A stretch of 64,000 nucleotides of DNA from Plasmodiophora brassicae (GCA_036867785.1 CP145418.1:1178001-1242000), one strand, 5' to 3'. Shown: positions 1-63,351, counted from the first letter of the stretch. A program made the numbers and translations. Notes: generated from the letters alone by a model not told the origin.

Positions 1-3000
1 CGTCGTCGGCTACCGTCGTCATTGACAAGAGCACGTCGTCGGCGTTCTCAGTTGGCGTCGGCGGTGCCCTGACCGACGCGATGCTGCTGATGGTCACGAC
101 GACAGGTGTATTGCAGGTCGGGGACACCCTGGTCTCAGATTTGTCGGTTGTCGGGTTTGACCGATCGACACGTTCGGAGTCGCTGCTCAGCCTGCGGGCT
201 TCGAATTCCGTGACGTTCTCCACGTCGGCCACGACCGTGTACGCGAACCTGTACGTGTCCACGGCCGGCAACGTCGCTGTCAACACCGCGCTGCACGTGC
301 CGAACGGGTACGTCCAGATCTTCGCGGATAACGATGCCAACCTGGCTGGCTCGTTTACCGTCGCGGCGTCGACGACGATCACGGTGTCGCTGGCGCTGAC
401 GAGCTTTTCGGTTTCGTGCGCCGACGTCGTCATCGGCAACGGCGCATCACTGGCCCTCTCTACTGCAAGCGTGTCGATTTCCAGCACGAGCACGTTGCCG
501 ATCCAGTTTGGCGGGTCGTCGTCGTCTGGCACCTGGGTCGACATATCGTCGACCGAGGCGGCATCCATCACGACGTCGACGTCGTGGAAGCTGATCAGCA
601 AGATTATCACGATCCGGGCGCTGTCGTCCGGCACAGTTGTCGGGTCGGTCGAGCTGGACGCCCGTGTTTCCGGCGGGCAGATTACGTTCAGCGCGTCGTC
701 CGTCTTCGACAGCCTGAATGCGACCGCTGAGGCCGGGCTGGCTGTCAACGCCCCTATAACGACTATCGTCGGGCAGCTCGCTCTGGATGGCGATTACGAT
801 CCGACGTCGGGCGGGCGGACTGCATTCGCCGCCAGCGCCACGCTTTCGGCTAAAGCGAACCTGCTGCTGTGCCCGAGGTCCCGCAGCGCCATCGACGTGG
901 TTGCCCCTGCGACCTGGTCCGCCCAGGGCAACGTCCAGTTGTACACGGGTGTGCGCACGACCGGCAGCGGGTCGACGCTCTCCATCCTAGCGGACAGTGC
1001 CGCGGCTGGCTCTGGTCAGCTGATCTTCGCTGGCACGGCAAACATATCGGTTCAAGCCCCGGTCGTCAGCACGGTCTACCTTCGCGCCAGCGCCATGCAG
1101 TGGTCGACAGGGTTCCGGCTATCGGCGTCGTCGGCTACCGTCGTCATTGACAAGAGCACGTCGTCGGCGTTCTCAGTTGGCGTCGGCGGTGCCCTGACCG
1201 ACGCGATGCTGCTGATGGTCACGACGACAGGTGTATTGCAGGTCGGGGACACCCTGGTCTCAGATTTGTCGGTTGTCGGGTTTGACCGATCGACACGTTC
1301 GGAGTCGCTGCTCAGCCTGCGGGCTTCGAATTCCGTGACGTTCTCCACGTCGGCCACGACCGTGTACGCGAACCTGTACGTGTCCACGGCCGGCAACGTC
1401 GCTGTCAACACCGCGCTGCACGTGCCGAACGGGTACGTCCAGATCTTCGCGGATAACGATGCCAACCTGGCTGGCTCGTTTACCGTCGCGGCGTCGACGA
1501 CGATCACGGTGTCGCTGGCGCTGACGAGCTTTTCGGTTTCGTGCGCCGACGTCGTCATCGGCAACGGCGCATCACTGGCCCTCTCTACTGCAAGCGTGTC
1601 GATTTCCAGCACGAGCACGTTGCCGATCCAGTTTGGCGGGTCGTCGTCGTCTGGCACCTGGGTCGACATATCGTCGACCGAGGCGGCATCCATCACGACG
1701 TCGACGTCGTGGAAGCTGATCAGCAAGATTATCACGATCCGGGCGCTGTCGTCCGGCACAGTTGTCGGGTCGGTCGAGCTGGACGCCCGTGTTTCCGGCG
1801 GGCAGATTACGTTCAGCGCGTCGTCCGTCTTCGACAGCCTGAATGCGACCGCTGAGGCCGGGCTGGCTGTCAACGCCCCTATAACGACTATCGTCGGGCA
1901 GCTCGCTCTGGATGGCGATTACGATCCGACGTCGGGCGGGCGGACTGCATTCGCCGCCAGCGCCACGCTTTCGGCTAAAACGAACCTGCTGCTGTGCCCG
2001 AGGTCCCGCAGCGCCATCGACGTGGTTGCCCCTGCGACCTGGTCCGCCCAGGGCAACGTCCAGTTGTACACGGGTGTGCGCACGACCGGCAGCGGGTCGA
2101 CGCTCTCCATCCTAGCGGACAGTGCCGCGGCTGGCTCTGGTCAGCTGATCTTCGCTGGCACGGCAAACATATCGGTTCAAGCCCCGGTCGTCAGCACGGT
2201 CTACCTTCGCGCCAGCGCCATGCAGTGGTCGACAGGGTTCCGGCTATCGGCGTCGTCGGCTACCGTCGTCATTGACAAGAGCACGTCGTCGGCGTTCTCA
2301 GTTGGCGTCGGCGGTGCCCTGACCGACGCGATGCTGCTGATGGTCACGACGACAGGTGTATTGCAGGTCGGGGACACCCTGGTCTCAGATTTGTCGGTTG
2401 TCGGGTTTGACCGATCGACACGTTCGGAGTCGCTGCTCAGCCTGCGGGCTTCGAATTCCGTGACGTTCTCCACGTCGGCCACGACCGTGTACGCGAACCT
2501 GTACGTGTCCACGGCCGGCAACGTCGCTGTCAACACCGCGCTGCACGTGCCGAACGGGTACGTCCAGATCTTCGCGGATAACGATGCCAACCTGGCTGGC
2601 TCGTTTACCGTCGCGGCGTCGACGACGATCACGGTGTCGCTGGCGCTGACGAGCTTTTCGGTTTCGTGCGCCGACGTCGTCATCGGCAACGGCGCATCAC
2701 TGGCCCTCTCTACTGCAAGCGTGTCGATTTCCAGCACGAGCACGTTGCCGATCCAGTTTGGCGGGTCGTCGTCGTCTGGCACCTGGGTCGACATATCGTC
2801 GACCGAGGCGGCATCCATCACGACGTCGACGTCGTGGAAGCTGATCAGCAAGATTATCACGATCCGGGCGCTGTCGTCCGGCACAGTTGTCGGGTCGGTC
2901 GAGCTGGACGCCCGTGTTTCCGGCGGGCAGATTACGTTCAGCGCGTCGTCCGTCTTCGACAGCCTGAATGCGACCGCTGAGGCCGGGCTGGCTGTCAACG

Positions 3001-6000
3001 CCCCTATAACGACTATCGTCGGGCAGCTCGCTCTGGATGGCGATTACGATCCGACGTCGGGCGGGCGGACTGCATTCGCCGCCAGCGCCACGCTTTCGGC
3101 TAAAGCGAACCTGCTGCTGTGCCCGAGGTCCCGCAGCGCCATCGACGTGGTTGCCCCTGCGACCTGGTCCGCCCAGGGCAACGTCCAGTTGTACACGGGT
3201 GTGCGCACGACCGGCAGCGGGTCGACGCTCTCCATCCTAGCGGACAGTGCCGCGGCTGGCTCTGGTCAGCTGATCTTCGCTGGCACGGCAAACATATCGG
3301 TTCAAGCCCCGGTCGTCAGCACGGTCTACCTTCGCGCCAGCGCCATGCAGTGGTCGACAGGGTTCCGGCTATCGGCGTCGTCGGCTACCGTCGTCATTGA
3401 CAAGAGCACGTCGTCGGCGTTCTCAGTTGGCGTCGGCGGTGCCCTGACCGACGCGATGCTGCTGATGGTCACGACGACAGGTGTATTGCAGGTCGGGGAC
3501 ACCCTGGTCTCAGATTTGTCGGTTGTCGGGTTTGACCGATCGACACGTTCGGAGTCGCTGCTCAGCCTGCGGGCTTCGAATTCCGTGACGTTCTCCACGT
3601 CGGCCACGACCGTGTACGCGAACCTGTACGTGTCCACGGCCGGCAACGTCGCTGTCAACACCGCGCTGCACGTGCCGAACGGGTACGTCCAGATCTTCGC
3701 GGATAACGATGCCAACCTGGCTGGCTCGTTTACCGTCGCGGCGTCGACGACGATCACGGTGTCGCTGGCGCTGACGAGCTTTTCGGTTTCGTGCGCCGAC
3801 GTCGTCATCGGCAACGGCGCATCACTGGCCCTCTCTACTGCAAGCGTGTCGATTTCCAGCACGAGCACGTTGCCGATCCAGTTTGGCGGGTCGTCGTCGT
3901 CTGGCACCTGGGTCGACATATCGTCGACCGAGGGCGGCATCCATCACGACGTCGACGTCGTGGAAGCTGATCAGCAAGATTATCACGATCCGGGCGCTGT
4001 CGTCCGGCACAGTTGTCGGGTCGGTCGAGCTGGACGCCCGTGTTTCCGGCGGGCAGATTACGTTCAGCGCGTCGTCCGTCTTCGACAGCCTGAATGCGAC
4101 CGCTGAGGCCGGGCTGGCTGTCAACGCCCCTATAACGACTATCGTCGGGCAGCTCGCTCTGGATGGCGATTACGATCCGACGTCGGGCGGGCGGACTGCA
4201 TTCGCCGCCAGCGCCACGCTTTCGGCTAAAGCGAACCTGCTGCTGTGCCCGAGGTCCCGCAGCGCCATCGACGTGGTTGCCCCTGCGACCTGGTCCGCCC
4301 AGGGCAACGTCCAGTTGTACACGGGTGTGCGCACGACCGGCAGCGGGTCGACGCTCTCCATCCTAGCGGACAGTGCCGCGGCTGGCTCTGGTCAGCTGAT
4401 CTTCGCTGGCACGGCAAACATATCGGTTCAAGCCCCGGTCGTCAGCACGGTCTACCTTCGCGCCAGCGCCATGCAGTGGTCGACAGGGTTCCGGCTATCG
4501 GCGTCGTCGGCTACCGTCGTCATTGACAAGAGCACGTCGTCGGCGTTCTCAGTTGGCGTCGGCGGTGCCCTGACCGACGCGATGCTGCTGATGGTCACGA
4601 CGACAGGTGTATTGCAGGTCGGGGACACCCTGGTCTCAGATTTGTCGGTTGTCGGGTTTGACCGATCGACACGTTCGGAGTCGCTGCTCAGCCTGCGGGC
4701 TTCGAATTCCGTGACGTTCTCCACGTCGGCCACGACCGTGTACGCGAACCTGTACGTGTCCACGGCCGGCAACGTCGCTGTCAACACCGCGCTGCACGTG
4801 CCGAACGGGTACGTCCAGATCTTCGCGGATAACGATGCCAACCTGGCTGGCTCGTTTACCGTCGCGGCGTCGACGACGATCACGGTGTCGCTGGCGCTGA
4901 CGAGCTTTTCGGTTTCGTGCGCCGACGTCGTCATCGGCAACGGCGCATCACTGGCCCTCTCTACTGCAAGCGTGTCGATTTCCAGCACGAGCACGTTGCC
5001 GATCCAGTTTGGCGGGTCGTCGTCGTCTGGCACCTGGGTCGACATATCGTCGACCGAGGCGGCATCCATCACGACGTCGACGTCGTGGAAGCTGATCAGC
5101 AAGATTATCACGATCCGGGCGCTGTCGTCCGGCACAGTTGTCGGGTCGGTCGAGCTGGACGCCCGTGTTTCCGGCGGGCAGATTACGTTCAGCGCGTCGT
5201 CCGTCTTCGACAGCCTGAATGCGACCGCTGAGGCCGGGCTGGCTGTCAACGCCCCTATAACGACTATCGTCGGGCAGCTCGCTCTGGATGGCGATTACGA
5301 TCCGACGTCGGGCGGGCGGACTGCATTCGCCGCCAGCGCCACGCTTTCGGCTAAAACGAACCTGCTGCTGTGCCCGAGGTCCCGCAGCGCCATCGACGTG
5401 GTTGCCCCTGCGACCTGGTCCGCCCAGGGCAACGTCCAGTTGTACACGGGTGTGCGCACGACCGGCAGCGGGTCGACGCTCTCCATCCTAGCGGACAGTG
5501 CCGCGGCTGGCTCTGGTCAGCTGATCTTCGCTGGCACGGCAAACATATCGGTTCAAGCCCCGGTCGTCAGCACGGTCTACCTTCGCGCCAGCGCCATGCA
5601 GTGGTCGACAGGGTTCCGGCTATCGGCGTCGTCGGCTACCGTCGTCATTGACAAGAGCACGTCGTCGGCGTTCTCAGTTGGCGTCGGCGGTGCCCTGACC
5701 GACGCGATGCTGCTGATGGTCACGACGACAGGTGTATTGCAGGTCGGGGACACCCTGGTCTCAGATTTGTCGGTTGTCGGGTTTGACCGATCGACACGTT
5801 CGGAGTCGCTGCTCAGCCTGCGGGCTTCGAATTCCGTGACGTTCTCCACGTCGGCCACGACCGTGTACGCGAACCTGTACGTGTCCACGGCCGGCAACGT
5901 CGCTGTCAACACCGCGCTGCACGTGCCGAACGGGTACGTCCAGATCTTCGCGGATAACGATGCCAACCTGGCTGGCTCGTTTACCGTCGCGGCGTCGACG

Positions 6001-9000
6001 ACGATCACGGTGTCGCTGGCGCTGACGAGCTTTTCGGTTTCGTGCGCCGACGTCGTCATCGGCAACGGCGCATCACTGGCCCTCTCTACTGCAAGCGTGT
6101 CGATTTCCAGCACGAGCACGTTGCCGATCCACTTTGGCGGGTCGTCGTCGTCTGGCACCTGGGTCGACATATCGTCGACCGAGGCGGCATCCATCACGAC
6201 GTCGACGTCGTGGAAGCTGATCAGCAAGATTATCACGATCCGGGCGCTGTCGTCCGGCACAGTTGTCGGGTCGGTCGAGCTGGACGCCCGTGTTTCCGGC
6301 GGGCAGATTACGTTCAGCGCGTCGTCCGTCTTCGACAGCCTGAATGCGACCGCTGAGGCCGGGCTGGCTGTCAACGCCCCTATAACGACTATCGTCGGGC
6401 AGCTCGCTCTGGATGGCGATTACGATCCGACGTCGGGCGGGCGGACTGCATTCGCCGCCAGCGCCACGCTTTCGGCTAAAGCGAACCTGCTGCTGTGCCC
6501 GAGGTCCCGCAGCGCCATCGACGTGGTTGCCCCTGCGACCTGGTCCGCCCAGGGCAACGTCCAGTTGTACACGGGTGTGCGCACGACCGGCAGCGGGTCG
6601 ACGCTCTCCATCCTAGCGGACAGTGCCGCGGCTGGCTCTGGTCAGCTGATCTTCGCTGGCACGGCAAACATATCGGTTCAAGCCCCCGGTCGTCAGCACG
6701 GTCTACCTTCGCGCCAGCGCCATGCAGTGGTCGACAGGGTTCCGGCTATCGGCGTCGTCGGCTACCGTCGTCATTGACAAGAGCACGTCGTCGGCGTTCT
6801 CAGTTGGCGTCGGCGGTGCCCTGACCGACGCGATGCTGCTGATGGTCACGACGACAGGTGTATTGCAGGTCGGGGACACCCTGGTCTCAGATTTGTCGGT
6901 TGTCGGGTTTGACCGATCGACACGTTCGGAGTCGCTGCTCAGCCTGCGGGCTTCGAATTCCGTGACGTTCTCCACGTCGGCCACGACCGTGTACGCGAAC
7001 CTGTACGTGTCCACGGCCGGCAACGTCGCTGTCAACACCGCGCTGCACGTGCCGAACGGGTACGTCCAGATCTTCGCGGATAACGATGCCAACCTGGCTG
7101 GCTCGTTTACCGTCGCGGCGTCGACGACGATCACGGTGTCGCTGGCGCTGACGAGCTTTTCGGTTTCGTGCGCCGACGTCGTCATCGGCAACGGCGCATC
7201 ACTGGCCCTCTCTACTGCAAGCGTGTCGATTTCCAGCACGAGCACGTTGCCGATCCAGTTTGGCGGGTCGTCGTCGTCTGGCACCTGGGTCGACATATCG
7301 TCGACCGAGGCGGCATCCATCACGACGTCGACGTCGTGGAAGCTGATCAGCAAGATTATCACGATCCGGGCGCTGTCGTCCGGCACAGTTGTCGGGTCGG
7401 TCGAGCTGGACGCCCGTGTTTCCGGCGGGCAGATTACGTTCAGCGCGTCGTCCGTCTTCGACAGCCTGAATGCGACCGCTGAGGCCGGGCTGGCTGTCAA
7501 CGCCCCTATAACGACTATCGTCGGGCAGCTCGCTCTGGATGGCGATTACGATCCGACGTCGGGCGGGCGGACTGCATTCGCCGCCAGCGCCACGCTTTCG
7601 GCTAAAACGAACCTGCTGCTGTGCCCGAGGTCCCGCAGCGCCATCGACGTGGTTGCCCCTGCGACCTGGTCCGCCCAGGGCAACGTCCAGTTGTACACGG
7701 GTGTGCGCACGACCGGCAGCGGGTCGACGCTCTCCATCCTAGCGGACAGTGCCGCGGCTGGCTCTGGTCAGCTGATCTTCGCTGGCACGGCAAACATATC
7801 GGTTCAAGCCCCGGTCGTCAGCACGGTCTACCTTCGCGCCAGCGCCATGCAGTGGTCGACAGGGTTCCGGCTATCGGCGTCGTCGGCTACCGTCGTCATT
7901 GACAAGAGCACGTCGTCGGCGTTCTCAGTTGGCGTCGGCGGTGCCCTGACCGACGCGATGCTGCTGATGGTCACGACGACAGGTGTATTGCAGGTCGGGG
8001 ACACCCTGGTCTCAGATTTGTCGGTTGTCGGGTTTGACCGATCGACACGTTCGGAGTCGCTGCTCAGCCTGCGGGCTTCGAATTCCGTGACGTTCTCCAC
8101 GTCGGCCACGACCGTGTACGCGAACCTGTACGTGTCCACGGCCGGCAACGTCGCTGTCAACACCGCGCTGCACGTGCCGAACGGGTACGTCCAGATCTTC
8201 GCGGATAACGATGCCAACCTGGCTGGCTCGTTTACCGTCGCGGCGTCGACGACGATCACGGTGTCGCTGGCGCTGACGAGCTTTTCGGTTTCGTGCGCCG
8301 ACGTCGTCATCGGCAACGGCGCATCACTGTCCCTCTCTACTGCAAGCGTGTCGATTTCCAGCACGAGCACGTTGCCGATCCAGTTTGGCGGGTCGTCGTC
8401 GTCTGGCACCTGGGTCGACATATCGTCGACCGAGGCGGCATCCATCACGACGTCGACGTCGTGGAAGCTGATCAGCAAGATTATCACGATCCGGGCGCTG
8501 TCGTCCGGCACAGTTGTCGGGTCGGTCGAGCTGGACGCCCGTGTTTCCGGCGGGCAGATTACGTTCAGCGCGTCGTCCGTCTTCGACAGCCTGAATGCGA
8601 CCGCTGAGGCCGGGCTGGCTGTCAACGCCCCTATAACGACTATCGTCGGGCAGCTCGCTCTGGATGGCGATTACGATCCGACGTCGGGCGGGCGGACTGC
8701 ATTCGCCGCCAGCGCCACGCTTTCGGCTAAAGCGAACCTGCTGCTGTGCCCGAGGTCCCGCAGCGCCATCGACGTGGTTGCCCCTGCGACCTGGTCCGCC
8801 CAGGGCAACGTCCAGTTGTACACGGGTGTGCGCACGACCGGCAGCGGGTCGACGCTCTCCATCCTAGCGGACAGTGCCGCGGCTGGCTCTGGTCAGCTGA
8901 TCTTCGCTGGCACGGCAAACATATCGGTTCAAGCCCCGGTCGTCAGCACGGTCTACCTTCGCGCCAGCGCCATGCAGTGGTCGACAGGGTTCCGGCTATC

Positions 9001-12000
9001 GGCGTCGTCGGCTACCGTCGTCATTGACAAGAGCACGTCGTCGGCGTTCTCAGTTGGCGTCGGCGGTGCCCTGACCGACGCGATGCTGCTGATGGTCACG
9101 ACGACAGGTGTATTGCAGGTCGGGGACACCCTGGTCTCAGATTTGTCGGTTGTCGGGTTTGACCGATCGACACGTTCGGAGTCGCTGCTCAGCCTGCGGG
9201 CTTCGAATTCCGTGACGTTCTCCACGTCGGCCACGACCGTGTACGCGAACCTGTACGTGTCCACGGCCGGCAACGTCGCTGTCAACACCGCGCTGCACGT
9301 GCCGAACGGGTACGTCCAGATCTTCGCGGATAACGATGCCAACCTGGCTGGCTCGTTTACCGTCGCGGCGTCGACGACGATCACGGTGTCGCTGGCGCTG
9401 ACGAGCTTTTCGGTTTCGTGCGCCGACGTCGTCATCGGCAACGGCGCATCACTGGCCCTCTCTACTGCAAGCGTGTCGATTTCCAGCACGAGCACGTTGC
9501 CGATCCAGTTTGGCGGGTCGTCGTCGTCTGGCACCTGGGTCGACATATCGTCGACCGAGGCGGCATCCATCACGACGTCGACGTCGTGGAAGCTGATCAG
9601 CAAGATTATCACGATCCGGGCGCTGTCGTCCGGCACAGTTGTCGGGTCGGTCGAGCTGGACGCCCGTGTTTCCGGCGGGCAGATTACGTTCAGCGCGTCG
9701 TCCGTCTTCGACAGCCTGAATGCGACCGCTGAGGCCGGGCTGGCTGTCAACGCCCCTATAACGACTATCGTCGGGCAGCTCGCTCTGGATGGCGATTACG
9801 ATCCGACGTCGGGCGGGCGGACTGCATTCGCCGCCAGCGCCACGCTTTCGGCTAAAACGAACCTGCTGCTGTGCCCGAGGTCCCGCAGCGCCATCGACGT
9901 GGTTGCCCCTGCGACCTGGTCCGCCCAGGGCAACGTCCAGTTGTACACGGGTGTGCGCACGACCGGCAGCGGGTCGACGCTCTCCATCCTAGCGGACAGT
10001 GCCGCGGCTGGCTCTGGTCAGCTGATCTTCGCTGGCACGGCAAACATATCGGTTCAAGCCCCGGTCGTCAGCACGGTCTACCTTCGCGCCAGCGCCATGC
10101 AGTGGTCGACAGGGTTCCGGCTATCGGCGTCGTCGGCTACCGTCGTCATTGACAAGAGCACGTCGTCGGCGTTCTCAGTTGGCGTCGGCGGTGCCCTGAC
10201 CGACGCGATGCTGCTGATGGTCACGACGACAGGTGTATTGCAGGTCGGGGACACCCTGGTCTCAGATTTGTCGGTTGTCGGGTTTGACCGATCGACACGT
10301 TCGGAGTCGCTGCTCAGCCTGCGGGCTTCGAATTCCGTGACGTTCTCCACGTCGGCCACGACCGTGTACGCGAACCTGTACGTGTCCACGGCCGGCAACG
10401 TCGCTGTCAACACCGCGCTGCACGTGCCGAACGGGTACGTCCAGATCTTCGCGGATAACGATGCCAACCTGGCTGGCTCGTTTACCGTCGCGGCGTCGAC
10501 GACGATCACGGTGTCGCTGGCGCTGACGAGCTTTTCGGTTTCGTGCGCCGACGTCGTCATCGGCAACGGCGCATCACTGGCCCTCTCTACTGCAAGCGTG
10601 TCGATTTCCAGCACGAGCACGTTGCCGATCCAGTTTGGCGGGTCGTCGTCGTCTGGCACCTGGGTCGACATATCGTCGACCGAGGCGGCATCCATCACGA
10701 CGTCGACGTCGTGGAAGCTGATCAGCAAGATTATCACGATCCGGGCGCTGTCGTCCGGCACAGTTGTCGGGTCGGTCGAGCTGGACGCCCGTGTTTCCGG
10801 CGGGCAGATTACGTTCAGCGCGTCGTCCGTCTTCGACAGCCTGAATGCGACCGCTGAGGCCGGGCTGGCTGTCAACGCCCCTATAACGACTATCGTCGGG
10901 CAGCTCGCTCTGGATGGCGATTACGATCCGACGTCGGGCGGGCGGACTGCATTCGCCGCCAGCGCCACGCTTTCGGCTAAAGCGAACCTGCTGCTGTGCC
11001 CGAGGTCCCGCAGCGCCATCGACGTGGTTGCCCCTGCGACCTGGTCCGCCCAGGGCAACGTCCAGTTGTACACGGGTGTGCGCACGACCGGCAGCGGGTC
11101 GACGCTCTCCATCCTAGCGGACAGTGCCGCGGCTGGCTCTGGTCAGCTGATCTTCGCTGGCACGGCAAACATATCGGTTCAAGCCCCGGTCGTCAGCACG
11201 GTCTACCTTCGCGCCAGCGCCATGCAGTGGTCGACAGGGTTCCGGCTATCGGCGTCGTCGGCTACCGTCGTCATTGACAAGAGCACGTCGTCGGCGTTCT
11301 CAGTTGGCGTCGGCGGTGCCCTGACCGACGCGATGCTGCTGATGGTCACGACGACAGGTGTATTGCAGGTCGGGGACACCCTGGTCTCAGATTTGTCGGT
11401 TGTCGGGTTTGACCGATCGACACGTTCGGAGTCGCTGCTCAGCCTGCGGGCTTCGAATTCCGTGACGTTCTCCACGTCGGCCACGACCGTGTACGCGAAC
11501 CTGTACGTGTCCACGGCCGGCAACGTCGCTGTCAACACCGCGCTGCACGTGCCGAACGGGTACGTCCAGATCTTCGCGGATAACGATGCCAACCTGGCTG
11601 GCTCGTTTACCGTCGCGGCGTCGACGACGATCACGGTGTCGCTGGCGCTGACGAGCTTTTCGGTTTCGTGCGCCGACGTCGTCATCGGCAACGGCGCATC
11701 ACTGGCCCTCTCTACTGCAAGCGTGTCGATTTCCAGCACGAGCACGTTGCCGATCCAGTTTGGCGGGTCGTCGTCGTCTGGCACCTGGGTCGACATATCG
11801 TCGACCGAGGCGGCATCCATCACGACGTCGACGTCGTGGAAGCTGATCAGCAAGATTATCACGATCCGGGCGCTGTCGTCCGGCACAGTTGTCGGGTCGG
11901 TCGAGCTGGACGCCCGTGTTTCCGGCGGGCAGATTACGTTCAGCGCGTCGTCCGTCTTCGACAGCCTGAATGCGACCGCTGAGGCCGGGCTGGCTGTCAA

Positions 12001-15000
12001 CGCCCCTATAACGACTATCGTCGGGCAGCTCGCTCTGGATGGCGATTACGATCCGACGTCGGGCGGGCGGACTGCATTCGCCGCCAGCGCCACGCTTTCG
12101 GCTAAAACGAACCTGCTGCTGTGCCCGAGGTCCCGCAGCGCCATCGACGTGGTTGCCCCTGCGACCTGGTCCGCCCAGGGGCAACGTCCAGTTGTACACG
12201 GGTGTGCGCACGACCGGCAGCGGGTCGACGCTCTCCATCCTAGCGGACAGTGCCGCGGCTGGCTCTGGTCAGCTGATCTTCGCTGGCACGGCAAACATAT
12301 CGGTTCAAGCCCCGGTCGTCAGCACGGTCTACCTTCGCGCCAGCGCCATGCAGTGGTCGACAGGGTTCCGGCTATCGGCGTCGTCGGCTACCGTCGTCAT
12401 TGACAAGAGCACGTCGTCGGCGTTCTCAGTTGGCGTCGGCGGTGCCCTGACCGACGCGATGCTGCTGATGGTCACGACGACAGGTGTATTGCAGGTCGGG
12501 GACACCCTGGTCTCAGATTTGTCGGTTGTCGGGTTTGACCGATCGACACGTTCGGAGTCGCTGCTCAGCCTGCGGGCTTCGAATTCCGTGACGTTCTCCA
12601 CGTCGGCCACGACCGTGTACGCGAACCTGTACGTGTCCACGGCCGGCAACGTCGCTGTCAACACCGCGCTGCACGTGCCGAACGGGTACGTCCAGATCTT
12701 CGCGGATAACGATGCCAACCTGGCTGGCCTCGTTTACCGTCGCGGCGTCGACGACGATCACGGTGTCGCTGGCGCTGACGAGCTTTTCGGTTTCGTGCGC
12801 CGACGTCGTCATCGGCAACGGCGCATCACTGGCCCTCTCTACTGCAAGCGTGTCGATTTCCAGCACGAGCACGTTGCCGATCCAGTTTGGCGGGTCGTCG
12901 TCGTCTGGCACCTGGGTCGACATATCGTCGACCGAGGCGGCATCCATCACGACGTCGACGTCGTGGAAGCTGATCAGCAAGATTATCACGATCCGGGCGC
13001 TGTCGTCCGGCACAGTTGTCGGGTCGGTCGAGCTGGACGCCCGTGTTTCCGGCGGGCAGATTACGTTCAGCGCGTCGTCCGTCTTCGACAGCCTGAATGC
13101 GACCGCTGAGGCCGGGCTGGCTGTCAACGCCCCTATAACGACTATCGTCGGGCAGCTCGCTCTGGATGGCGATTACGATCCGACGTCGGGCGGGCGGACT
13201 GCATTCGCCGCCAGCGCCACGCTTTCGGCTAAAACGAACCTGCTGCTGTGCCCGAGGTCCCGCAGCGCCATCGACGTGGTTGCCCCTGCGACCTGGTCCG
13301 CCCAGGGCAACGTCCAGTTGTACACGGGTGTGCGCACGACCGGCAGCGGGTCGACGCTCTCCATCCTAGCGGACAGTGCCGCGGCTGGCTCTGGTCAGCT
13401 GATCTTCGCTGGCACGGCAAACATATCGGTTCAAGCCCCGGTCGTCAGCACGGTCTACCTTCGCGCCAGCGCCATGCAGTGGTCGACAGGGTTCCGGCTA
13501 TCGGCGTCGTCGGCTACCGTCGTCATTGACAAGAGCACGTCGTCGGCGTTCTCAGTTGGCGTCGGCGGTGCCCTGACCGACGCGATGCTGCTGATGGTCA
13601 CGACGACAGGTGTATTGCAGGTCGGGGACACCCTGGTCTCAGATTTGTCGGTTGTCGGGTTTGACCGATCGACACGTTCGGAGTCGCTGCTCAGCCTGCG
13701 GGCTTCGAATTCCGTGACGTTCTCCACGTCGGCCACGACCGTGTACGCGAACCTGTACGTGTCCACGGCCGGCAACGTCGCTGTCAACACCGCGCTGCAC
13801 GTGCCGAACGGGTACGTCCAGATCTTCGCGGATAACGATGCCAACCTGGCTGGCTCGTTTACCGTCGCGGCGTCGACGACGATCACGGTGTCGCTGGCGC
13901 TGACGAGCTTTTCGGTTTCGTGCGCCGACGTCGTCATCGGCAACGGCGCATCACTGGCCCTCTCTACTGCAAGCGTGTCGATTTCCAGCACGAGCACGTT
14001 GCCGATCCAGTTTGGCGGGTCGTCGTCGTCTGGCACCTGGGTCGACATATCGTCGACCGAGGCGGCATCCATCACGACGTCGACGTCGTGGAAGCTGATC
14101 AGCAAGATTATCACGATCCGGGCGCTGTCGTCCGGCACAGTTGTCGGGTCGGTCGAGCTGGACGCCCGTGTTTCCGGCGGGCAGATTACGTTCAGCGCGT
14201 CGTCCGTCTTCGACAGCCTGAATGCGACCGCTGAGGCCGGGCTGGCTGTCAACGCCCCTATAACGACTATCGTCGGGCAGCTCGCTCTGGATGGCGATTA
14301 CGATCCGACGTCGGGCGGGCGGACTGCATTCGCCGCCAGCGCCACGCTTTCGGCTAAAACGAACCTGCTGCTGTGCCCGAGGTCCCGCAGCGCCATCGAC
14401 GTGGTTGCCCCTGCGACCTGGTCCGCCCAGGGCAACGTCCAGTTGTACACGGGTGTGCGCACGACCGGCAGCGGGTCGACGCTCTCCATCCTAGCGGACA
14501 GTGCCGCGGCTGGCTCTGGTCAGCTGATCTTCGCTGGCACGGCAAACATATCGGTTCAAGCCCCGGTCGTCAGCACGGTCTACCTTCGCGCCAGCGCCAT
14601 GCAGTGGTCGACAGGGTTCCGGCTATCGGCGTCGTCGGCTACCGTCGTCATTGACAAGAGCACGTCGTCGGCGTTCTCAGCTGGCGTCGGCGGTGCCCTG
14701 ACCGACGCGATGCTGCTGATGGTCACGACGACAGGTGTATTGCAGGTCGGGGACACCCTGGTCTCAGATTTGTCGGTTGTCGGGTTTGACCGATCGACAC
14801 GTTCGGAGTCGCTGCTCAGCCTGCGGGCTTCGAATTCCGTGACGTTCTCCACGTCGGCCACGACCGTGTACGCGAACCTGTACGTGTCCACGGCCGGCAA
14901 CGTCGCTGTCAACACCGCGCTGCAACGTGCCGAACGGGTACGTCCAGATCTTCGCGGATAACGATGCCAACCTGGCTGGCTCGTTTACCGTCGCGGCGTC

Positions 15001-16690
15001 GACGACGATCACGGTGTCGCTGGCGCTGACGAGCTTTTCGGTTTCGTGCGCCGACGTCGTCATCGGCAACGGCGCATCACTGGCCCTCTCTACTGCAAGC
15101 GTGTCGATTTCCAGCACGAGCACGTTGCCGATCCAGTTTGGCGGGTCGTCGTCGTCTGGCACCTGGGTCGACATATCGTCGACCGAGGCGGCATCCATCA
15201 CGACGTCGACGTCGTGGAAGCTGATCAGCAAGATTATCACGATCCGGGCGCTGTCGTCCGGCACAGTTGTCGGGTCGGTCGAGCTGGACGCCCGTGTTTC
15301 CGGCGGGCAGATTACGTTCAGCGCGTCGTCCGTCTTCGACAGCCTGAATGCGACCGCTGAGGCCGGGCTGGCTGTCAACGCCCCTATAACGACTATCGTC
15401 GGGCAGCTCGCTCTGGATGGCGATTACGATCCGACGTCGGGCGGGCGGACTGCATTCGCCGCCAGCGCCACGCTTTTTCGGCTAAAACGAACCTGCTGCT
15501 GTGCCCGAGGTCCCGCAGCGCCATCGACGTGGTTGCCCCTGCGACCTGGTCCGCCCAGGGCAACGTCCAGTTGTACACGGGTGTGCGCACGACCGGCAGC
15601 GGGTCGACGCTCTCCATCCTAGCGGACAGTGCCGCGGCTGGCTCTGGTCAGCTGATCTTCGCTGGCACGGCAAACATATCGGTTCAAGCCCCGGTCGTCA
15701 GCACGGTCTACCTTCGCGCCAGCGCCATGCAGTGGTCGACAGGGTTCCGGCTATCGGCGTCGTCGGCTACCGTCGTCATTGACAAGAGCACGTCGTCGGC
15801 GTTCTCAGTTGGCGTCGGCGGTGCCCTGACCGACGCGATGCTGCTGATGGTCACGACGACAGGTGTATTGCAGGTCGGGGACACCCTGGTCTCAGATTTG
15901 TCGGTTGTCGGGTTTGACCGATCGACACGTTCGGAGTCGCTGCTCAGCCTGCGGGCTTCGAATTCCGTGACGTTCTCCACGTCGGCCACGACCGTGTACG
16001 CGAACCTGTACGTGTCCACGGCCGGCAACGTCGCTGTCAACACCGCGCTGCACGTGCCGAACGGGTACGTCCAGATCTTCGCGGATAACGATGCCAACCT
16101 GGCTGGCTCGTTTACCGTCGCGGCGTCGACGACGATCACGGTGTCGCTGGCGCTGACGAGCTTTTCGGTTTCGTGCGCCGACGTCGTCATCGGCAACGGC
16201 GCATCACTGGCCCTCTCTACTGCAAGCGTGTCGATTTCCAGCACGAGCACGTTGCCGATCCAGTTTGGCGGGTCGTCGTCGTCTGGCACCTGGGTCGACA
16301 TATCGTCGACCGAGGCGGCATCCATCACGACGTCGACGTCGTGGAAGCTGATCAGCAAGATTATCACGATCCGGGCGCTGTCGTCCGGCACAGTTGTCGG
16401 GTCGGTCGAGCTGGACGCCCGTGTTTCTGGCGGGCAGATTACGTTCAGCGCGTCGTCCGTCTTCGACAGCCTGAATGCGACCGCTGAGGCCGGGCTGGCT
16501 GTCAACGCCCCTATAACGACTATCGTCGGGCAGCTCGCTCTGGATGGCGATTACGATCCGACGTCGGGCGGGCGGACTGCATTCGCCGCCAGCGCCACGC
16601 TTTCGGCTAAAACGAACCTGCTGCTGTGCCCGAGGTCCCGCAGCGCCATCGACGTGGTTGCCCCTGCGACCTGGTCCGCCCAGGGCAACG
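1..16690 (+). repeat. Coding tandem array, 1125-bp unit, ~14.8 near-identical copies
   Basis: The same sequence recurs every 1125 bp (ORF starts 416, 1541, 2666...). Only a few substitutions and six 1-2 nt insertions separate the copies. A diverged copy follows at ~16691-17815. Confidence 0.98.
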
Positions 16691-19600
16691 TGCAGCTGTA
16701 TACTGGTGTCCGCGCGACCGGTACCGGGGCCTGCCTGTCGGTTATAGCTGACAGCGACGCGTCTGGTTCCGGCTCCTTATTGTTTGCAAGCTCCGCAAAC
16801 ATCACCGTTGGTTCTCCCGTGGTGTCTTGTGTCTATCTTCGTGCGGCCACGCTGCAATGGTCTGCTGGGTTTGTCCTGTCGGCTTCAACGGCCGCGGTCG
16901 TCATTGATCGCAGCAGTTCCGGTGCGTGGTCATTCGGCGCCGGTGGCTCCGTGACGAGCACGTTGCTGGCGATGATAACAACCAGCGGTACACTTCAACT
17001 CGGCGACACGCTGATTTCGGACCTGACCATCACCGGGTTCGACCGGTCGTCGAGCCAAGAGTCTCTGCTGAGCATCTGTTCCAGTTCGTCCGTCACCTTG
17101 TCGTCGGCGGCGACCACTGTCTTCGGAAACCTGTACATAAGGACGCCTGGCAGTGTATCTATCAACGCGGACCTGCATGTTCCGAACGGCTATGTGCAAA
17201 TCTTTGCTGATTCCGATGCCAACCTGAACGGGGCGTTCGTCGTGGCGGCCTCTACCAGCGTCATCGTCTCTGCGTCGCTGACATCGTTTTCCGTTTCGTG
17301 TGCTGACGTCGCGATTGGCAATGGGGCGTCGCTGGCCCTTTCGACCGCCAAGGTGTCAATATCGAGCACCAGCACTCTGCCGATCCAGTTTGGCGGTTCT
17401 CCTTCGTCGGGTTCCTGGGTAGATATCTCGTCGGCGGAAGCTGCTTGCATAACAACATCGACGTCGTGGCTGCTGGCAGCCAAGACGATCACTATTCGAA
17501 GCTTGGCGTCGGGCGTCACGCATGGCTCTGTCGAACTGGATGCCCGCGTTTCCGCTGGCCAAATTACGTTCAGTGGCAATTCTGTTTTTGACAGTCTCAA
17601 TGCGACTGCAAGTGCAGGCATTTCTGTGCTTGCTCCGGTTACAACGATTGCTGGGCAGTTAGCATTAGACGGGTGCTATGATGGCGGCGGAATTTCTGGG
17701 ACATCCATTGCGTCTGGGCAAACCCTGTGGGCGTTTTCTAATTTGCTTCTTCACCCGAGATCCTTTGGTTATGTGTCCGTTAGTGCCCCTCTTGCAATTC
17801 GTGCTAACCGCGATGTCCGTCTGTATGCCAATCTCGTCGTTATTGGAACTGGGGTGCTCAACGTTAGCGCGGATTATCTTGCGGCAGGTGTCGGCAGTTT
17901 CCTTTGTCAATCGGCTGGCAATGTGTCAGTTCTGTCGTCGTCCGTGGATGGTGTTTCAGTCAGTGCCGCAGACTATGTGCTTGGATCCTCCTGCGTCGTC
18001 GATGCTGGTGTTTCGAGTCTTACTGTGATGTCTTCTGGGGTGTCGGGCATGTTCTTTGGATCTGCTCCCGGTCTTTGTCAGCTCTCTAACATGGAGGTCA
18101 ATTTGCTCGTGACGAGCGGAACTCTAACGCTTGGTGGCCCATTCGTTAATAACGTCACACTGTCTGCCGTTAACTATCTGCGACCGGCAGCAGGTGTCGC
18201 CGTTCATACCTCTGCTACTAGCCAAAGCTCCATCATTGTCGCTGGATACTTCAACGTCTCGAGTAGTGCAACCGCCTCGCTTCGCCTTGTTTCCGCCAAC
18301 GTTGTCGTCAATTCGTCGGTCTTCTGTTATGGCCACATTTTCTTTGTTCCCTCTGTCGTATCCAACATTTCTATCGGCTCGTTTCAGGGCAGATTCGCTT
18401 TTCCAGCGACTGCTCTGAATTACGTCATGTCTACAAACACGTTTACAATTGGAGGTGCTCTTGCGCAGGCGGTGTCTATTACACCTACGGTGTATGCGTG
18501 CGGGTCTGGTACGCTGGAGGTGTCTGCTCGTGATGAGCTTCCATCGCTCGGCATCGCGCTCGATGCAAATTCGTTGACGGTCTTCCCTAGTACCTCTGCG
18601 AATGCGATCCCGGCATGGCAGGTTGCGTCGACTTGGTCCATGGCATTAAGTCTGTCCGTTCCCGGGCATCCGTCGAATGCCGGGGCGTACAATTGTACAG
18701 TGTCGTGCTCGTTTGGATCTCTTGCTGTCAACTATACGTCGTCATCGCAGTCTGCAGCTTCCAGTTCGTTGACGTTCTCGGGGTCGCTTGCCCAAGTGCA
18801 GTTCTCTTTATCCACGCTTAAATACTCGCGAAACCGCACTCTATTTGGTGGAGATGCAGTTGTCAGTACGTTGTCCTTGGCGCAAGGGGCTACTCCTAAT
18901 GGTATTCAGAGTCGTACTACCGAAATCCGTTTCGACGATGGTGCTCTGGACGGGTTGCTCTCCACGTTGAGCGGCTCGTTTTCTTCAGGGAAAAGCGATG
19001 GCCTTGGACCATTGGGACATTTGGATAATCCTTGGGGAATCGTCATGGATTCAGGTCGTTCCCGGCTATATGTCAGCGACACTAACAACAACCGACTATG
19101 TGCAGTCGACGTAGAATCTGGCAACCTAACTACTTTTGCGGGGTCCTCCTCCGGATTTGTCGACGGGCCCGGTTATCTCGCTCGGTTCAGCCGCCCCAGA
19201 GGCATGTTCCTTCGTTCCGATGGTTATCTTGTTATTGCTGATACGGAGAACCATGCTATTCGTCTGGTGTCTCCAGTCGGTGTCACAACGACTCTTGTTG
19301 GTGGCGTTTATGGGGCTCCGCTGAGTCGCCCGTCCGGAGTGTGTGTGAACGCCTCCAATGCCGTTGTATTTATTGCCGACACAGAGAACAACCGTATTCT
19401 GACGTTATTGTCAAATGGGACGCTATCAGTCTATGCTGGTTCGGGTCAGTACGGATACGCAGATTCTCTCAATCCTCGTACTGCTCGGTTTAGGCACCCG
19501 TCGGCTGTCGCCGTCGACTCCCTTGGTAATCTGTACGTTGCGGACTCTTTGAACCACTGCATACGCAAGGTCTCCACGTTAGGCGCTGTTACGACACTGG

Positions 19601-21675
19601 CCGGGTCGCCATATCTCCATGGCTTCGCTGACGGGACAGGTGCAGCAGCTCGGTTCCATAAGCCGCTATCCGTCGTTATTGATTCCTCCGATGTGCTCTA
19701 CGTATCGGATACGTTCAACCATGTTATCCGGCAGGTGACGACGTCGGGTTCGGTTACTACCATTGCGGGAGACACCCCGGGGTCAAGCGACGGTTCGTCT
19801 CTTCTTTTCGGGCGGCTTCGCTTCCCCGGCCAGGTTGCTGTAGCGCCTACCGCCGTTGACGTTTTCATCGCGGATACTGGCAACCATGCCATTCGCCGCG
19901 TTCACTTGGTTGGATCCGTCCCTGTTGTTACGGCAATCTCGCCCTCGGGTGGCACGAACCTGGGTGGAACCGTTGTCGTCATCACCGGCTCGTTCACCGC
20001 GTCGCCACAGGATCTGTTCTGCAGCTTTGGGACATCTACCTTATATCCTGCCATAGCTGTTACATCGTCCACGGTCACCTGTACGACTCCTCCGCATGCG
20101 ACCGGCAAAGCCTTAGTTCGCGTGATCAATACGTTCACTTACAACAATCTCTACGTCCCGCAGACGTACTTCTACTCGAGTAACAGCGTCACGTTTTATT
20201 ATTCGCAGTCGTCGCTGCTTGCAAGCGTTAAAAGGATTGCCCCCCAGATTGGTCTCGTGTCTGGTGGCACTCAAGTCACTGTGTTCGGATCCAACTTCTA
20301 CGCCACGTTGCAACTACGGTGCGCGTTTGGTAGCACAGCAAACGCCGTTCCAGGATGGCGCTGGTCACCGAGCATGATTGTTTGTGTGTCGCCTCCGCAC
20401 GCAGCCGGGCAGGTTTACGTTTCGTTGACGTTTGACGGCCAACAGTATACGAGCGGCTCGCCCGCCACGTTCACCTATGCGCCACGTCCTGTCGTTTCGT
20501 CAATATTCCCGACATCCGGGCCGACCTACTACCGGACTCTTGTCAGTATCACAGGGAGCGGGTTCGTCGCCGGCGATTCTGGCTGCTGTTACTTTGGTAT
20601 CGATCGCGTGCCGATCGTGTTCTACTCGTCTACGTCGATAGCGTGCGTCACGCCGTCCCGTATCAGTTCCTTGACGGACCCGCTGGTCGTCACCGTGAAT
20701 GGTAACTGGGAAGAGGGTTCGTCGCCCCCCTCGTCGTTTACGTTCCTCAAGCCCATCAGGACGTTTACAATTTCGCCGGCACTGGGGCCGTCGACAGGGG
20801 GCACCATCGTCAACATCACTGGAGCGAATCTGGGCGCCAACAGCAGCACGATCTGCGCCTTCGGGTCCGGACCACCTGTGCCTGCTCTTGAGGTTACATC
20901 GACATGGGTGACCTGCCGGACTCCTGCGCAGGGGGAGGATCTCGTGCCGGTTCTCCTGGGGGCACCCGGTACCGCCCTGTCACGAACCAACAGTGTGTTC
21001 CGATTCGTCGCTCCGGTCGTCGTCCTTTCCGTGTATCCCCACTTCGGCCCAATCACAGGTGGGACGCCCGTGACAGTATCAGGCGCGAACTTCCTTAGTG
21101 AGGCCACCGAGTTCTGCTCCTTCTCGGGACTCGGGACCGTGGACGCGAGGCGACTGTCCACGACCACCGTCCTATGCTATTCGCCGCCAACGTCGTCGCC
21201 AACGTCCTCCGTGGTACGAGTCACGAGCAACGCGGTTGATTACTCGACGACGTCGGCCGTGTTTTCGTACAAACCCGTCGTCACGCTGGCCTCGATAACG
21301 CCCGCGGTTGGCATGACGTTCACCGAGACGGCTGTCACCATTACGGGCGCCAACTTTGTATTCTCGGGGCTGCTACGCGTCCAGTTCTCGGAATTCCTGC
21401 TGGTCCGGCCACAGTTCGTCAGCAGTTCGCTCCTGATCTGCGTGACGCCATCCGCGCGCGCCCCCGCCAACTCCACTGTCCGCGTCCTGAACAACGGCCT
21501 GCAAGCGTCGGCATCCGCCCTCGTCTTCCAGTTCGTGGACGCGGTCGACGTCGTCTCCGTGTCACCGTCGAGCGGCCCCAACGTCGGCGGCACCACCGTG
21601 TACGTCAACCTGGGCCAGGCCCTGTCCTGGCAGTCGTGGACGTGCGCGTTCACGGCCGTCAACGACAGCACCTGA
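1..21675 (+). CDS. Giant repetitive putative surface/secreted protein, 5' end outside the window: ~15 x 375-aa Ser/Thr/Ala/Val-rich repeats, diverged repeats, NHL repeats, 6 complete + 1 partial IPT/TIG domains; broken by 6 small insertions
   Basis: ORFs 81-4106, 3883-6777, 6722-12403, 12039-13109, 12712-14961, 14927-15622 and 15529-21675 encode the same repeat in shifting frames. NHL motifs (PWGIVMD..LYVSDTNNNRL, PSAVAVDSLGNLYVADSLNHCIR) at ~19000-19910. IPT motifs (PVVTAISPSGGTNLGGTVVVITG..CSFG) at ~19920-21672. No introns seen. Confidence 0.85.
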
Positions 21676-22003: not shown

Positions 22004-23458
22004 ATGACGGCGACAACGTCGCCGCTGTCCATACGTCGCCTGACGGTCATGCGATCGGGCGAGTGGTTCGTCGCGTTCGCCGACGGCGTCTGCCTGTACG
22101 TCGGGGCCGACGCCGCCGACGCCGTCCTGGTCGACGACGCCGGCCGGCGGCGCCGCGTGCGCCCGGCGTTCGCCCCGCGGACGGTGGTGGCGTGCCGCGA
22201 CCGGCTCCAGGCCGCCGTCGCGCTGCGCAACCGGCATTGCCCGGCGCCGATCGCGCTCGCCCACCTCGCCGACGACGTCGTGGACGACGACGTCGACGCC
22301 GGCTGCGTTCGCTGGCGGCGACCGCCGGCGCCGGCCACGTCGATCTCGTCCCGCTGCGGCCGCTTCCACCTGTCGATCGTGTCGCGCCCGACGCGCATCT
22401 GCTCCATCCGGTTCCCGTTCCCGGTGCGGGATCACCCCGGCGCGGCCGTCGTCGTCGTCGTCGACCAGGTCCTGCCCGTCGACGTCCTCCCGGGCGCCTG
22501 GCGCCGCGTCCTGGCCCTGCTGCTGGACGACGCGGACGACGCCACCGACGACGACGACATCTGCCTGGACATGCGCCTGGATCCCATCGCGACGCCCGCC
22601 TCGCCCTGGTCGTGCGAGCGCCTGGCGGATCGGTGCCGCTCCATGCAGACGCTGGACGCCGCCCTGCCCGACGACGACGACGACGACGCCGTCGCCGTCG
22701 ACTGGACGCGCACCGCCGTCTGGCACGTCGTCGACGACCTGGTCCTCTGCCGGTTCCACAGCGCCGACGACTCGGTGCTGCGGCCGTCGTCGTCGTCGTC
22801 GCTGTCCCTGTTCGAGCACGTCCGCGTCGACGGCACCACGACGCTCCACAGCAGCGACGTGGCGATGTCGGGCCCGGACCCGTTCTCGGCGTCGCACCCG
22901 ATCGGCGCGTCGGTGCGGCACGCCCACCGCCTGGCGCGCCTGTCCGCTCGTCGTCGTCTGCCGGCGGCGGCGGTGGCGCGCGTCCCGTCGTCGTCGTCGG
23001 CGCCGTCCAGCGCCGTCCGGGAGGCGTGCACGGTGCCGTCGCTGGGCGACTTTGTCGCGTTCGCCGACGGCCGCGTCACCGGCCGCTTCTTCGACCGCAC
23101 CCTGGTGCACGTTGGCGGCGAGGGCGACGCGGCGCCCCGGGTCGTGCGTCGCGACGGGACGACGGGGCCGCCGGCGCGCGACACCGACCAGGCGTACGTC
23201 GACGTGTGCAACGAGTTCCGCGCCTGGGCGCTCCTGTCCGTTGAGGAGCGCGCCCGGCGCCACGCCCAGGCGCGCCGGCGCCAGGACGCGGTCGACGACG
23301 AGATCGCGCGCAGCGCCTCGTTCCTGGGGCGCCCGTCGGCGCTGTTCGCCGCCGCCGCCGGCGACGACCTGGACCGGGTCGCCCGGGCGACGCTGCTGGC
23401 GAACGAGGCGTTCCTCGAGCGCCTGTCAACGGGTAAACGACGAGGGCACCTGCCCTGA
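22004..23458 (+). CDS. C5orf34-like protein (DUF4524/DUF4520-like)
   Basis: Single-exon ORF with coding-like codon bias. N-terminal RLTVMRSGEWFVAFADG...RLQAAVALRNRHCPAP and C-terminal VPSLGDFVAFADGRVTGRFFDRT resemble the two conserved C5orf34 blocks (recognised from memory). Confidence 0.6.
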   Translation: MTATTSPLSIRRLTVMRSGEWFVAFADGVCLYVGADAADAVLVDDAGRRRRVRPAFAPRTVVACRDRLQAAVALRNRHCPAPIALAHLADDVVDDDVDAGCVRWRRPPAPATSISSRCGRFHLSIVSRPTRICSIRFPFPVRDHPGAAVVVVVDQVLPVDVLPGAWRRVLALLLDDADDATDDDDICLDMRLDPIATPASPWSCERLADRCRSMQTLDAALPDDDDDDAVAVDWTRTAVWHVVDDLVLCRFHSADDSVLRPSSSSSLSLFEHVRVDGTTTLHSSDVAMSGPDPFSASHPIGASVRHAHRLARLSARRRLPAAAVARVPSSSSAPSSAVREACTVPSLGDFVAFADGRVTGRFFDRTLVHVGGEGDAAPRVVRRDGTTGPPARDTDQAYVDVCNEFRAWALLSVEERARRHAQARRRQDAVDDEIARSASFLGRPSALFAAAAGDDLDRVARATLLANEAFLERLSTGKRRGHLP

Positions 23459-25983: not shown

Positions 25984-26068
25984 TGCGTTCGGCAGGATTC
26001 GAACCTGCGCCCCCCGAAGAAGACTAGAACCTGAATCTAGCGCCTTGGACCAACTCGGCCACGAACGC
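25984..26068 (-). tRNA. tRNA-Leu (anticodon CAG)
   Basis: Cloverleaf: acceptor GCGTTCG/CGAACGC + discriminator A, D-arm GCCGAGTTGGTCCAAGGC, anticodon stem CTAGA/TCTAG with loop TT-CAG-GT, long variable arm, T-arm GCAGG-TTCGAAT-CCTGC; T5 run ~20 nt downstream. Confidence 0.95.
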
Positions 26069-61547: not shown

Positions 61548-61608
61548 AACGTCGACCACCCTGGCGACCAGCAAGATATGAAATGTCCATGAGCAGCGCT
61601 TCGCAGGT

Positions 61609-63283: not shown

Positions 63284-63351
<68 letters not shown>

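Follow-up and report, generated by a model that had tools for sequence, protein, structure and literature searches.

The left-hand end of a 64,000-nt stretch of Plasmodiophora brassicae DNA (GCA_036867785.1, CP145418.1:1178001-1242000; the whole stretch is referred to here as the window) raises the question of how a eukaryote comes to carry a gene built like a giant bacterial adhesin, and of what its product might do. A preliminary description had proposed an intronless gene here for a protein of more than 7000 amino acids (aa), and we find that positions 1-21675 of the + strand are indeed coding-like over their whole length and open at the window's left edge. In the product, 375-aa modules repeated in tandem (at least 16, of which 14 hardly differ) form a rod; a short linker leads from it to a six-bladed NHL propeller, and this is followed by six IPT/TIG domains and a truncated seventh. 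With moderate confidence, we interpret this stretch, about 7,220 codons long, as the 3' two-thirds of a single giant gene, intact in the organism, for a fibre resembling the shafts of the TpsA exoproteins of bacterial two-partner secretion (TPS) and having a rod of old bacterial origin.

The coding stretch is dominated by a tandem array that repeats every 1125 nt, which bears out the 375-aa repeat unit reported earlier; a comparison at this offset gives an identity of 0.71 over the whole region, rising to 0.996-1.0 in the majority of 500-nt bins. Tandem Repeats Finder did not detect the array, whose period exceeds the program's 500-nt maximum, and it was measured instead by offset identity and by blastn with unit 1 as the query. 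Fourteen complete 375-aa modules make up the homogenised part (1-15757, + strand), in copies of 1125-1128 nt with 99.56-100% identity; the first starts at window base 1 and the array extends upstream of the window. Only four substitution sites distinguish these 14 copies (three singletons and one shared), none of which creates a stop, the shared one being a G/A difference at unit position 855 that is common to 8 copies and unevenly spread along the array. The 15th module (15758-16884, + strand) is a hybrid, matching at 98.97% over its first 971 nt (15758-16728) and then diverging, with 8 of its 10 substitutions crowded into the final 37 nt of the match. The 16th (16885-17967, + strand) has diverged to 64% aa identity with the array unit, yet is recovered at 368 bits by the module profile and as a phmmer domain at residues 453-813 of P0001, the translation of the last piece of the coding stretch (window 15529-21675). 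A degenerate terminal part-module (17968-18500, + strand, its end approximate) closes the rod; module-profile matches run to P0001 residue 883, with a weak further match at 908-988 (independent E-value 6e-4).

An antisense open reading frame (ORF) of 265-280 codons recurs on the - strand between 1076 and 16550 in 12 of the 15 near-identical units and is shorter in the others. We rejected these ORFs as genes, for they are gone in the diverged copies after 16550, and they most likely arise because the repeat is GC-rich.

The deposited sequence is not one uninterrupted ORF of more than 7000 aa. The stop-to-stop listing breaks it into seven pieces free of stops, distributed over three frames (3-4106, 3775-6777, 6650-12403, 12012-13109, 12592-14961, 14843-15622 and 15361-21675), the last of which, at 2104 codons, is the longest actual ORF. 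Combining this list with a copy-by-copy alignment places six frame changes within 3900-15500 of the + strand, near 3.93, 6.68, 12.18, 12.73, 14.92 and 15.47 kb. Introns were tried as an explanation and rejected: the broken copies match unbroken ones in everything except run length, and frame changes whose flanking sequence is the same as in intact sister copies cannot be introns. All six coincide with indels, each of which lengthens a homopolymer run relative to the sister copies by a single base or, in one case, by two; there are no deletions. Long-read consensus errors, unlike mutations, characteristically take the form of insertions confined to homopolymers. Since all six are homopolymer-length differences between otherwise identical copies, we think it most likely that the frame changes are errors in the long-read consensus of an array of near-identical copies, and on that basis infer that the gene is intact in the organism. 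The claim of an intronless protein of more than 7000 aa therefore holds only if the six are counted as sequencing errors. The e3 assembly of P. brassicae was built from single-molecule real-time (SMRT) long reads and comprises 20 contigs, 13 of them complete chromosomes of 692,149-2,120,846 bp, according to passages of its published description (PMC6823432).

Were the frame changes real, the locus would be a decaying pseudogene, the relic of a giant fibre gene that was once functional. Six of them within 15.8 kb of deposited sequence are what such a reading would predict; the annotation treats the locus as more than one gene (models P0003, and P0004 at 16972-21672), the last IPT/TIG domain is truncated, and we found no mention of the gene in the literature. 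Decay of this kind would nonetheless have produced six homopolymer insertions and not one deletion, in excess of the three singleton substitutions, while placing no stop at any of the four substitution sites, keeping the copies 99.6-100% identical and leaving the 6.1-kb unique 3' part as one clean ORF. We consider a pseudogene unlikely.

An array of this kind is also hard to assemble, with more than 16 kb of 1125-nt units at 99.6% identity or above, and the deposited version may in part be a construct of the assembly, produced when repeats were collapsed or expanded or when reads mapping to several places were used for polishing; the real gene could then be shorter or longer, and its copies more diverse. 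Consensus-type indels are present, and the 2015 short-read model PBRA_007092 stops exactly where the identical units start. The uneven distribution of the G/A difference at unit position 855 argues that real copies were resolved, however, and the array grades into diverged copies at both edges. We judge such a construct improbable, and it would alter the length of the protein but not its nature. Three models were seen on the giant gene, namely PBRA_007092 (partial), P0003 and P0004, the last of which corresponds exactly to window 16972-21672. The lesson for annotation is that long-read homopolymer errors in a near-identical array can split one giant gene into several 'hypothetical proteins'.

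The first of these models appears to supply the missing 5' end. The best foreign match in the search with the repeat unit is P0005, recorded as 'hypothetical protein PBRA_007092, partial' from P. brassicae, whose first module matches the array unit at 49% identity and whose final residues are identical to the array. The final 62 residues of P0005 reappear at the start of model P0003 (2083 aa), which lies on a contig of the same length (1,307,724 bp) as that of the window's own models and goes on through five and a half array units. Because P0003 joins the end of P0005 to array units in this way, we take PBRA_007092 to be the probable 5' end of the giant gene, upstream of the window, and the whole protein would therefore comprise about 10,000 aa. 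The upstream signal peptide that the preliminary description had thought worth looking for has its counterpart here. The N-terminus of P0005 is a hydrophobic, signal-peptide-like segment, modelled by AlphaFold2 (AF2) as a helix at residues 16-30, and is followed by about 290 aa of unknown fold and then by a junction region, discussed below, that leads into the rod.

To what is this rod related? A word-indexed homologue search with the rod (P0001 residues 1-1100) returned only the genome's own models. An exhaustive HMMER search of 1.84 billion proteins with one unit, on the other hand, matched 71 proteins at E ≤ 1e-3, of which 26 were at E ≤ 1e-10. Pfam scans of 38 of the matches revealed a TPS secretion domain in four of them, P0015 (matching the unit at E 4.1e-22), P0035 (7.9e-10), P0048 (2.8e-06) and P0068 (2.6e-04), and the NCBIfam model TIGR01901 was found in P0015 and P0074. 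Four distant matches among the same 38 (P0043, P0048, P0059 and P0067) carry DUF5649 (PF18886) repeats, which Pfam does not find in P0001, P0002 or P0005; the P. brassicae protein is not, on this evidence, a DUF5649 protein. Other domains in the scanned matches are WSC (P0013), legume-lectin (P0040) and immunoglobulin (Ig; P0064, a weak match). In a control with 12 targets the real unit scored 37-130 bits, whereas 40 shuffled versions reached at most 6.9 bits and the reversed unit at most -1.7 bits. Composition therefore does not explain the matches. The similarity is distant: the best bacterial-type matches are only 29-32% identical to the unit.

The ESM Atlas returned only unnamed clusters and one cluster with 22% DUF5649, at low recognition (1666 and 1322), which we treat as a lead only.

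The likeness is not confined to the repeats. A search of 5.8 billion sequences with the N-terminal 720 aa of P0005 gave eight other matches (E 1e-8 to 2e-4), all of which carry PF05860, the Pfam family of the TPS domain, and P0005 residues 289-683 align with P0074 residues 188-583, the region directly after the TPS domain. A motif, GF[IV]E[IV]S...LLLDP, lies at residue 503 of P0005 and at residues 395-488 of 11 other proteins, seven of which are shown to have a TPS domain; this junction motif is a feature observed among the matches here and not a curated definition. The clearest bacterial case is a locus in an alphaproteobacterial metagenome-assembled genome (L001; WLWY01000014.1, 1210-19428), where a gene for a ShlB and POTRA_2 protein stands directly upstream of a TpsA ORF of more than 5437 aa. 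This TpsA has its TPS domain at residues 67-319, matches the unit at 41 bits and, immediately after the TPS domain (residues 321-664), matches P0005 residues 383-719 at 48 bits. At the level of sequence, these comparisons show the P. brassicae modules to be homologous to the shafts of TpsA exoproteins of the filamentous haemagglutinin (FHA)-like type.

The best non-rhizarian matches are P0012 and P0016, proteins of 4,400-4,700 aa that score 108 and 91 bits. Like the P. brassicae protein they have modules in register (of about 330 aa) and a junction motif, at residues 437-488; they differ in showing no TPS domain by Pfam, in having other N- and C-termini, and in being only 29-30% identical to the P. 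brassicae unit. They are probably bacterial, to judge from the 35%-identical TpsA in L001 and from an N-terminal motif.

Compared with TpsA exoproteins of the FhaB, HMW1 and HxuA type, the P. brassicae protein is likewise giant, rich in Ser, Thr, Gly and Ala, and made of beta-strand repeats, and it shares with them the shaft sequence, the post-TPS junction motif at a similar distance from the N-terminus and a functional domain at the far end. Unlike them, it is encoded by a eukaryotic gene with a signal-peptide-like start and ends in an NHL and IPT/TIG head, and its 375-aa modules have been homogenised to near identity. Neither hallmark of the secretion system was found. No TPS domain was detected in P0005 by Pfam (none at E ≤ 5) or NCBIfam (none at E ≤ 0.01), scans which do detect it in P0015 and P0074, and no ShlB, POTRA or Omp85 domain that might betray a TpsB partner occurs in any of the 18 coding-like ORFs that were scanned downstream of the gene (21.9-60.6 kb).

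The preliminary description had taken the repeats for beta-helical, FHA-like rods. AF2 modelling of the unit with a 37-sequence alignment gave a mean predicted local distance difference test (pLDDT) score of 93.8 and a predicted TM score (pTM) of 0.92, with about 40 short strands and only two short helices (residues 25-30 and 183-187). The strongest spectral peak of the unit is a period-2 hydrophobicity. We can therefore confidently describe the unit, as modelled, as an all-beta, solenoid-like rod module. The two related halves noted earlier are also there, with all four of the quoted strings present in the unit: a profile-profile comparison by hhalign relates them at 99.5% probability (E 5e-23, 138 columns), even though aligning the two sequences directly gives a score (61) that does not stand out significantly from shuffles (51.6 ± 8.0). 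Within every module a sub-module of about 150 aa has been duplicated, and the second half of the unit carries a 64-residue insertion.

The step from solenoid to beta-helix is less secure. The top rows of a Foldseek search against the PDB include the TPS domains of HxuA and HMW1, TibA, Ag43, a beta-helical antifreeze protein, tapirins, CsgA, RsaA and leucine-rich repeat (LRR) proteins, but none of the 66 matches reached E ≤ 0.001 (best E 0.24, TM 0.29). The hydrophobic autocorrelation of the unit shows no coil period above that of shuffled sequences, the module profile has no sequence relative in the PDB (0 hits at E ≤ 1), and the unit belongs to no Pfam or NCBIfam family. What stands of the original idea is the beta-rich solenoid and the similarity to TpsA shafts, and what does not is a significant structural match; the term 'beta-helix' is a tentative assignment that draws on the modelled secondary structure, the kind of protein in the top Foldseek rows and the homology described above.

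How and when the rod was acquired can be approached through a second rhizarian. P0013 (jgi/Bigna1/144719, 4675 aa) from Bigelowiella natans contains six to seven modules of about 350 aa in register with nearly the whole unit. It is 26% identical, with a WSC domain on its N-terminal side, no junction motif and, by Pfam, neither NHL nor IPT/TIG domains, and its modules have diverged among themselves whereas those of P. brassicae are homogenised. In a maximum-likelihood tree of 52 modules, each from a match covering at least 270 of the 375 positions (the genome's own duplicates P0002-P0004 being left out), the modules of the two species fall in the same clan. One branch sets the nine rhizarian modules opposite all 16 bacterial-labelled ones (ultrafast bootstrap (UFBoot) 98, SH-aLRT 96), and a quick tree agrees; this tree has no root, 27 of its rows lack a known origin, the composition of many is deviant, and repeats are difficult to align. 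Because the P. brassicae modules group with B. natans and apart from the bacterial ones, any transfer was old and not recent. We also screened 185,579 bacterial and archaeal species, each represented by one genome; none of the 164 pattern matches proved by tblastn to be a relative of the unit.

On this evidence it is highly unlikely that the parasite took up bacterial adhesin modules recently by horizontal transfer, or that the assembly is contaminated with bacterial DNA, despite several features that such an origin would explain. The gene is collinear with bacterial TpsA proteins. Excerpts of the genome paper (PMC4471660) give an average of four 60-bp introns per gene for P. brassicae, which makes it notable that no intron is needed over 6.1 kb of unique coding sequence. 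The GC content at third codon positions (GC3) of the unique 3' part lies below that of the neighbouring genes. Set against these are the modest identity of the bacterial-type matches (29-32% at best), the lack of a tblastn relative among the genomes screened and the position of the modules beside B. natans and opposite all the bacterial-labelled rows. The head, moreover, best matches eukaryotic NHL and plexin-type IPT structures. Contamination is argued against by the intron-bearing eukaryotic genes that flank the gene on the same DNA and by a host-like GC3 (0.81 in the array unit and 0.77-0.91 in the neighbours).

We also weighed the opposite possibility, that the family is anciently eukaryotic, that it moved from eukaryotes to bacteria, or that Ser/Thr/Gly-rich beta-solenoids have converged. 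The tree modules of unknown origin could be eukaryotic, some matches carry WSC, legume-lectin or Ig domains, and solenoid repeats can converge. Yet the shuffling and reversal control excludes composition as the cause, and the likeness reaches into a non-repetitive junction motif at a similar distance from the N-terminus. The bacterial members, for their part, belong to a complete and widespread secretion system with a dedicated partner, and the only named eukaryotes with the family are the two rhizarians. This alternative we regard as quite unlikely. Of the horizontal acquisition that had been suggested for these modules, then, the bacterial direction remains plausible, the family being collinear with TpsA proteins that have a TpsB neighbour, while a recent or parasite-specific event does not. 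We favour a rod that reached Rhizaria long ago, probably from bacteria, over recent capture.

Beyond the rod, the order of a SLTFSGSLAQVQFSLSTLKY block, NHL repeats and IPT/TIG domains given in the preliminary description was confirmed by Pfam and by the positions in the translation. The linker (18501-18996, + strand), which includes the SLTFSGSLAQVQFSLSTLKY block at 18766-18825, is of unknown fold, and apart from the first NHL repeat it contains no Pfam match at E ≤ 5; the block itself (SLTFSG...) matches no Pfam family at that threshold. The NHL beta-propeller occupies 18997-19920 (+ strand), with six blade motifs at 19066-19902, and is known from sequence matches: Pfam NHL (PF01436) scores 5.5e-26, or 89.7 bits against a cut-off of 20, and the motif count gives six blades. 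Sequence matches in the PDB are led by the NHL domain of SOQ1 (9e-30, about 295 residues), a teneurin-like protein (1.3e-29) and NHLRC2 (1.9e-24), with TRIM71 also present. TEN_NHL is matched as well (4.4e-10, 39.5 bits), but it stands alone, with no YD or other teneurin domain in the Pfam list of P0001, so that the protein does not qualify as a teneurin.

Six IPT/TIG (Ig-like) domains follow at 19921-21543 (+ strand; Pfam TIG, PF01833, 6.1e-55 in six stretches, 183.6 bits, the cut-off being 20.9), and in the PDB sequence search this region is matched by the IPT domains of plexin and Met at 9e-12 to 1e-5. The domains start at 19921, 20227, 20488, 20755, 21016 and 21277, with a seventh start at 21544. 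In translation, only the first half of this seventh domain is encoded (21544-21675, + strand) before the stop codon at 21673-21675. We looked for a small 3' exon that might complete it; candidate splice sites are present but neither continuation was convincing, and either a small unannotated exon or a truncation is possible. About 330 nt separate the stop from the next ATG, at 22005, which opens a gene for a C5orf34-like protein (22005-23455, GC3 0.94). The head thus resembles the propellers of SOQ1, NHLRC2, teneurin-like proteins and TRIM71 and the IPT arrays of plexin and Met (E 9e-30 to 1e-5). Those proteins differ in having no beta-helical rod, and the P. brassicae IPT/TIG array differs in being C-terminal, without a transmembrane segment and truncated in its last domain.

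Several of our observations weigh against the overall interpretation of an intact fibre gene of old bacterial origin. In the deposited sequence the gene is broken six times. The protein ends in half an IPT/TIG domain, with neither a transmembrane segment nor a glycosylphosphatidylinositol (GPI)-like tail. GC3 falls to 0.54-0.73 in the unique 3' part, and to 0.54-0.57 with T-rich third positions at 16885-19980, a contrast with the array that may have arisen because gene conversion there is GC-biased, or because expression is low. As 27 of the 52 tree modules are of unknown source, the eukaryotic range of the family is uncertain. The AF2 model of PBRA_007092 has a mean pLDDT of 48.5, with only residues from about 400 to 690 reaching 63-88, and a TPS-like fold may be hidden in residues 1-355, which are modelled at below 50. 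Finally, a function as a surface fibre or adhesin is deduced wholly from the architecture.

With these points in mind, a history can be sketched in which the rod family passed from bacteria to a rhizarian ancestor long ago and was later fused to eukaryote-type NHL and IPT/TIG head domains. The TPS domain and the TpsB partner would have been lost, and a signal peptide would now direct export through the endoplasmic reticulum (ER). In P. brassicae the array would then have undergone recent expansion and homogenisation, by unequal crossing-over or gene conversion. Its modules might stack into a stiff extracellular beta-solenoid fibre; a beta-helix rises 4.8 Å per coil and the FHA rod measures 50 nm, and scaled from these figures the approximately 6,170 rod residues in the window could form a rod of about 0.1-0.15 micrometres. 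At its far end the NHL propeller and IPT/TIG stalk may bind a ligand, and the WSC- or lectin-bearing relatives hint, by analogy, at a glycan. Such a product could serve as a zoospore surface fibril or adhesin for root-hair attachment, or as a fibre of the resting-spore wall. The full sequence of events, that is an early-rhizarian capture of a TPS fibre gene that was stripped of its TPS domain, re-routed to the secretory pathway, fused to NHL and IPT domains and grown by concerted evolution to about 10,000 aa as an attachment fibre or spore spine, is offered as a tentative reconstruction.

P. brassicae cannot, to our knowledge, be cultured, and both the attachment of zoospores to root hairs and the construction of the durable spore are poorly known in molecular terms. 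The protein described here would be a candidate extracellular fibre with recognisable binding domains that could be tested with antibodies, proteomics and recombinant fragments. Its novelty would lie in the combination of a TpsA-type fibre in a eukaryote, in which neither a TPS domain nor TpsB was found, with an NHL/IPT head. If our interpretation is correct, this would be the first FHA-type adhesin to work in a eukaryote; a beta-helical shaft that belongs, in bacteria, to an outer-membrane secretion system would function there without its dedicated transporter, and such a gene would have lasted in two distant rhizarian lineages. Literature search listings and passages contained no published description under PBRA_007092 or under NHL-repeat or haemagglutinin-like proteins of Plasmodiophora, and nothing relevant on filamentous haemagglutinin in eukaryotes or on rhizarian giant adhesins of bacterial origin. 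Nor do the passages available from three P. brassicae genome papers mention this gene.

The remainder of the window contains eukaryotic genes, including those for Brix, ENPP, MINDY, MCM7, RbfA, SLC12, a kinase and GH114 proteins. As had been said of the neighbours, several have introns: MCM7 lies in at least three pieces, SLC12 in four and the kinase in two, and one MCM7 intron of 49 nt has the form GTCAGT...CTAAC...CAG. On the - strand at 54500-64000 stand four tandem paralogues of a GH114-family glycoside hydrolase, 2.4-3.1 kb apart and sharing DNA blocks of 70-98% identity, three of which contain a low-complexity stretch with a 42-nt period (at about 57.7-58.0, 60.3-60.5 and 62.7 kb). Two inverted copies of tRNA-Leu(CAG), at 25984-26068 (- strand) and 46419-46503 (+ strand), lie 20.3 kb apart and are identical over 87 nt (100%), the identity ending at the tRNA boundary. 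Direct repeats of 90-131 nt and 89-93% identity link 34517-34816 with 38311-39126, at a spacing of about 3.8-4.3 kb, which suggests two paralogous genes for membrane-protein-like products.

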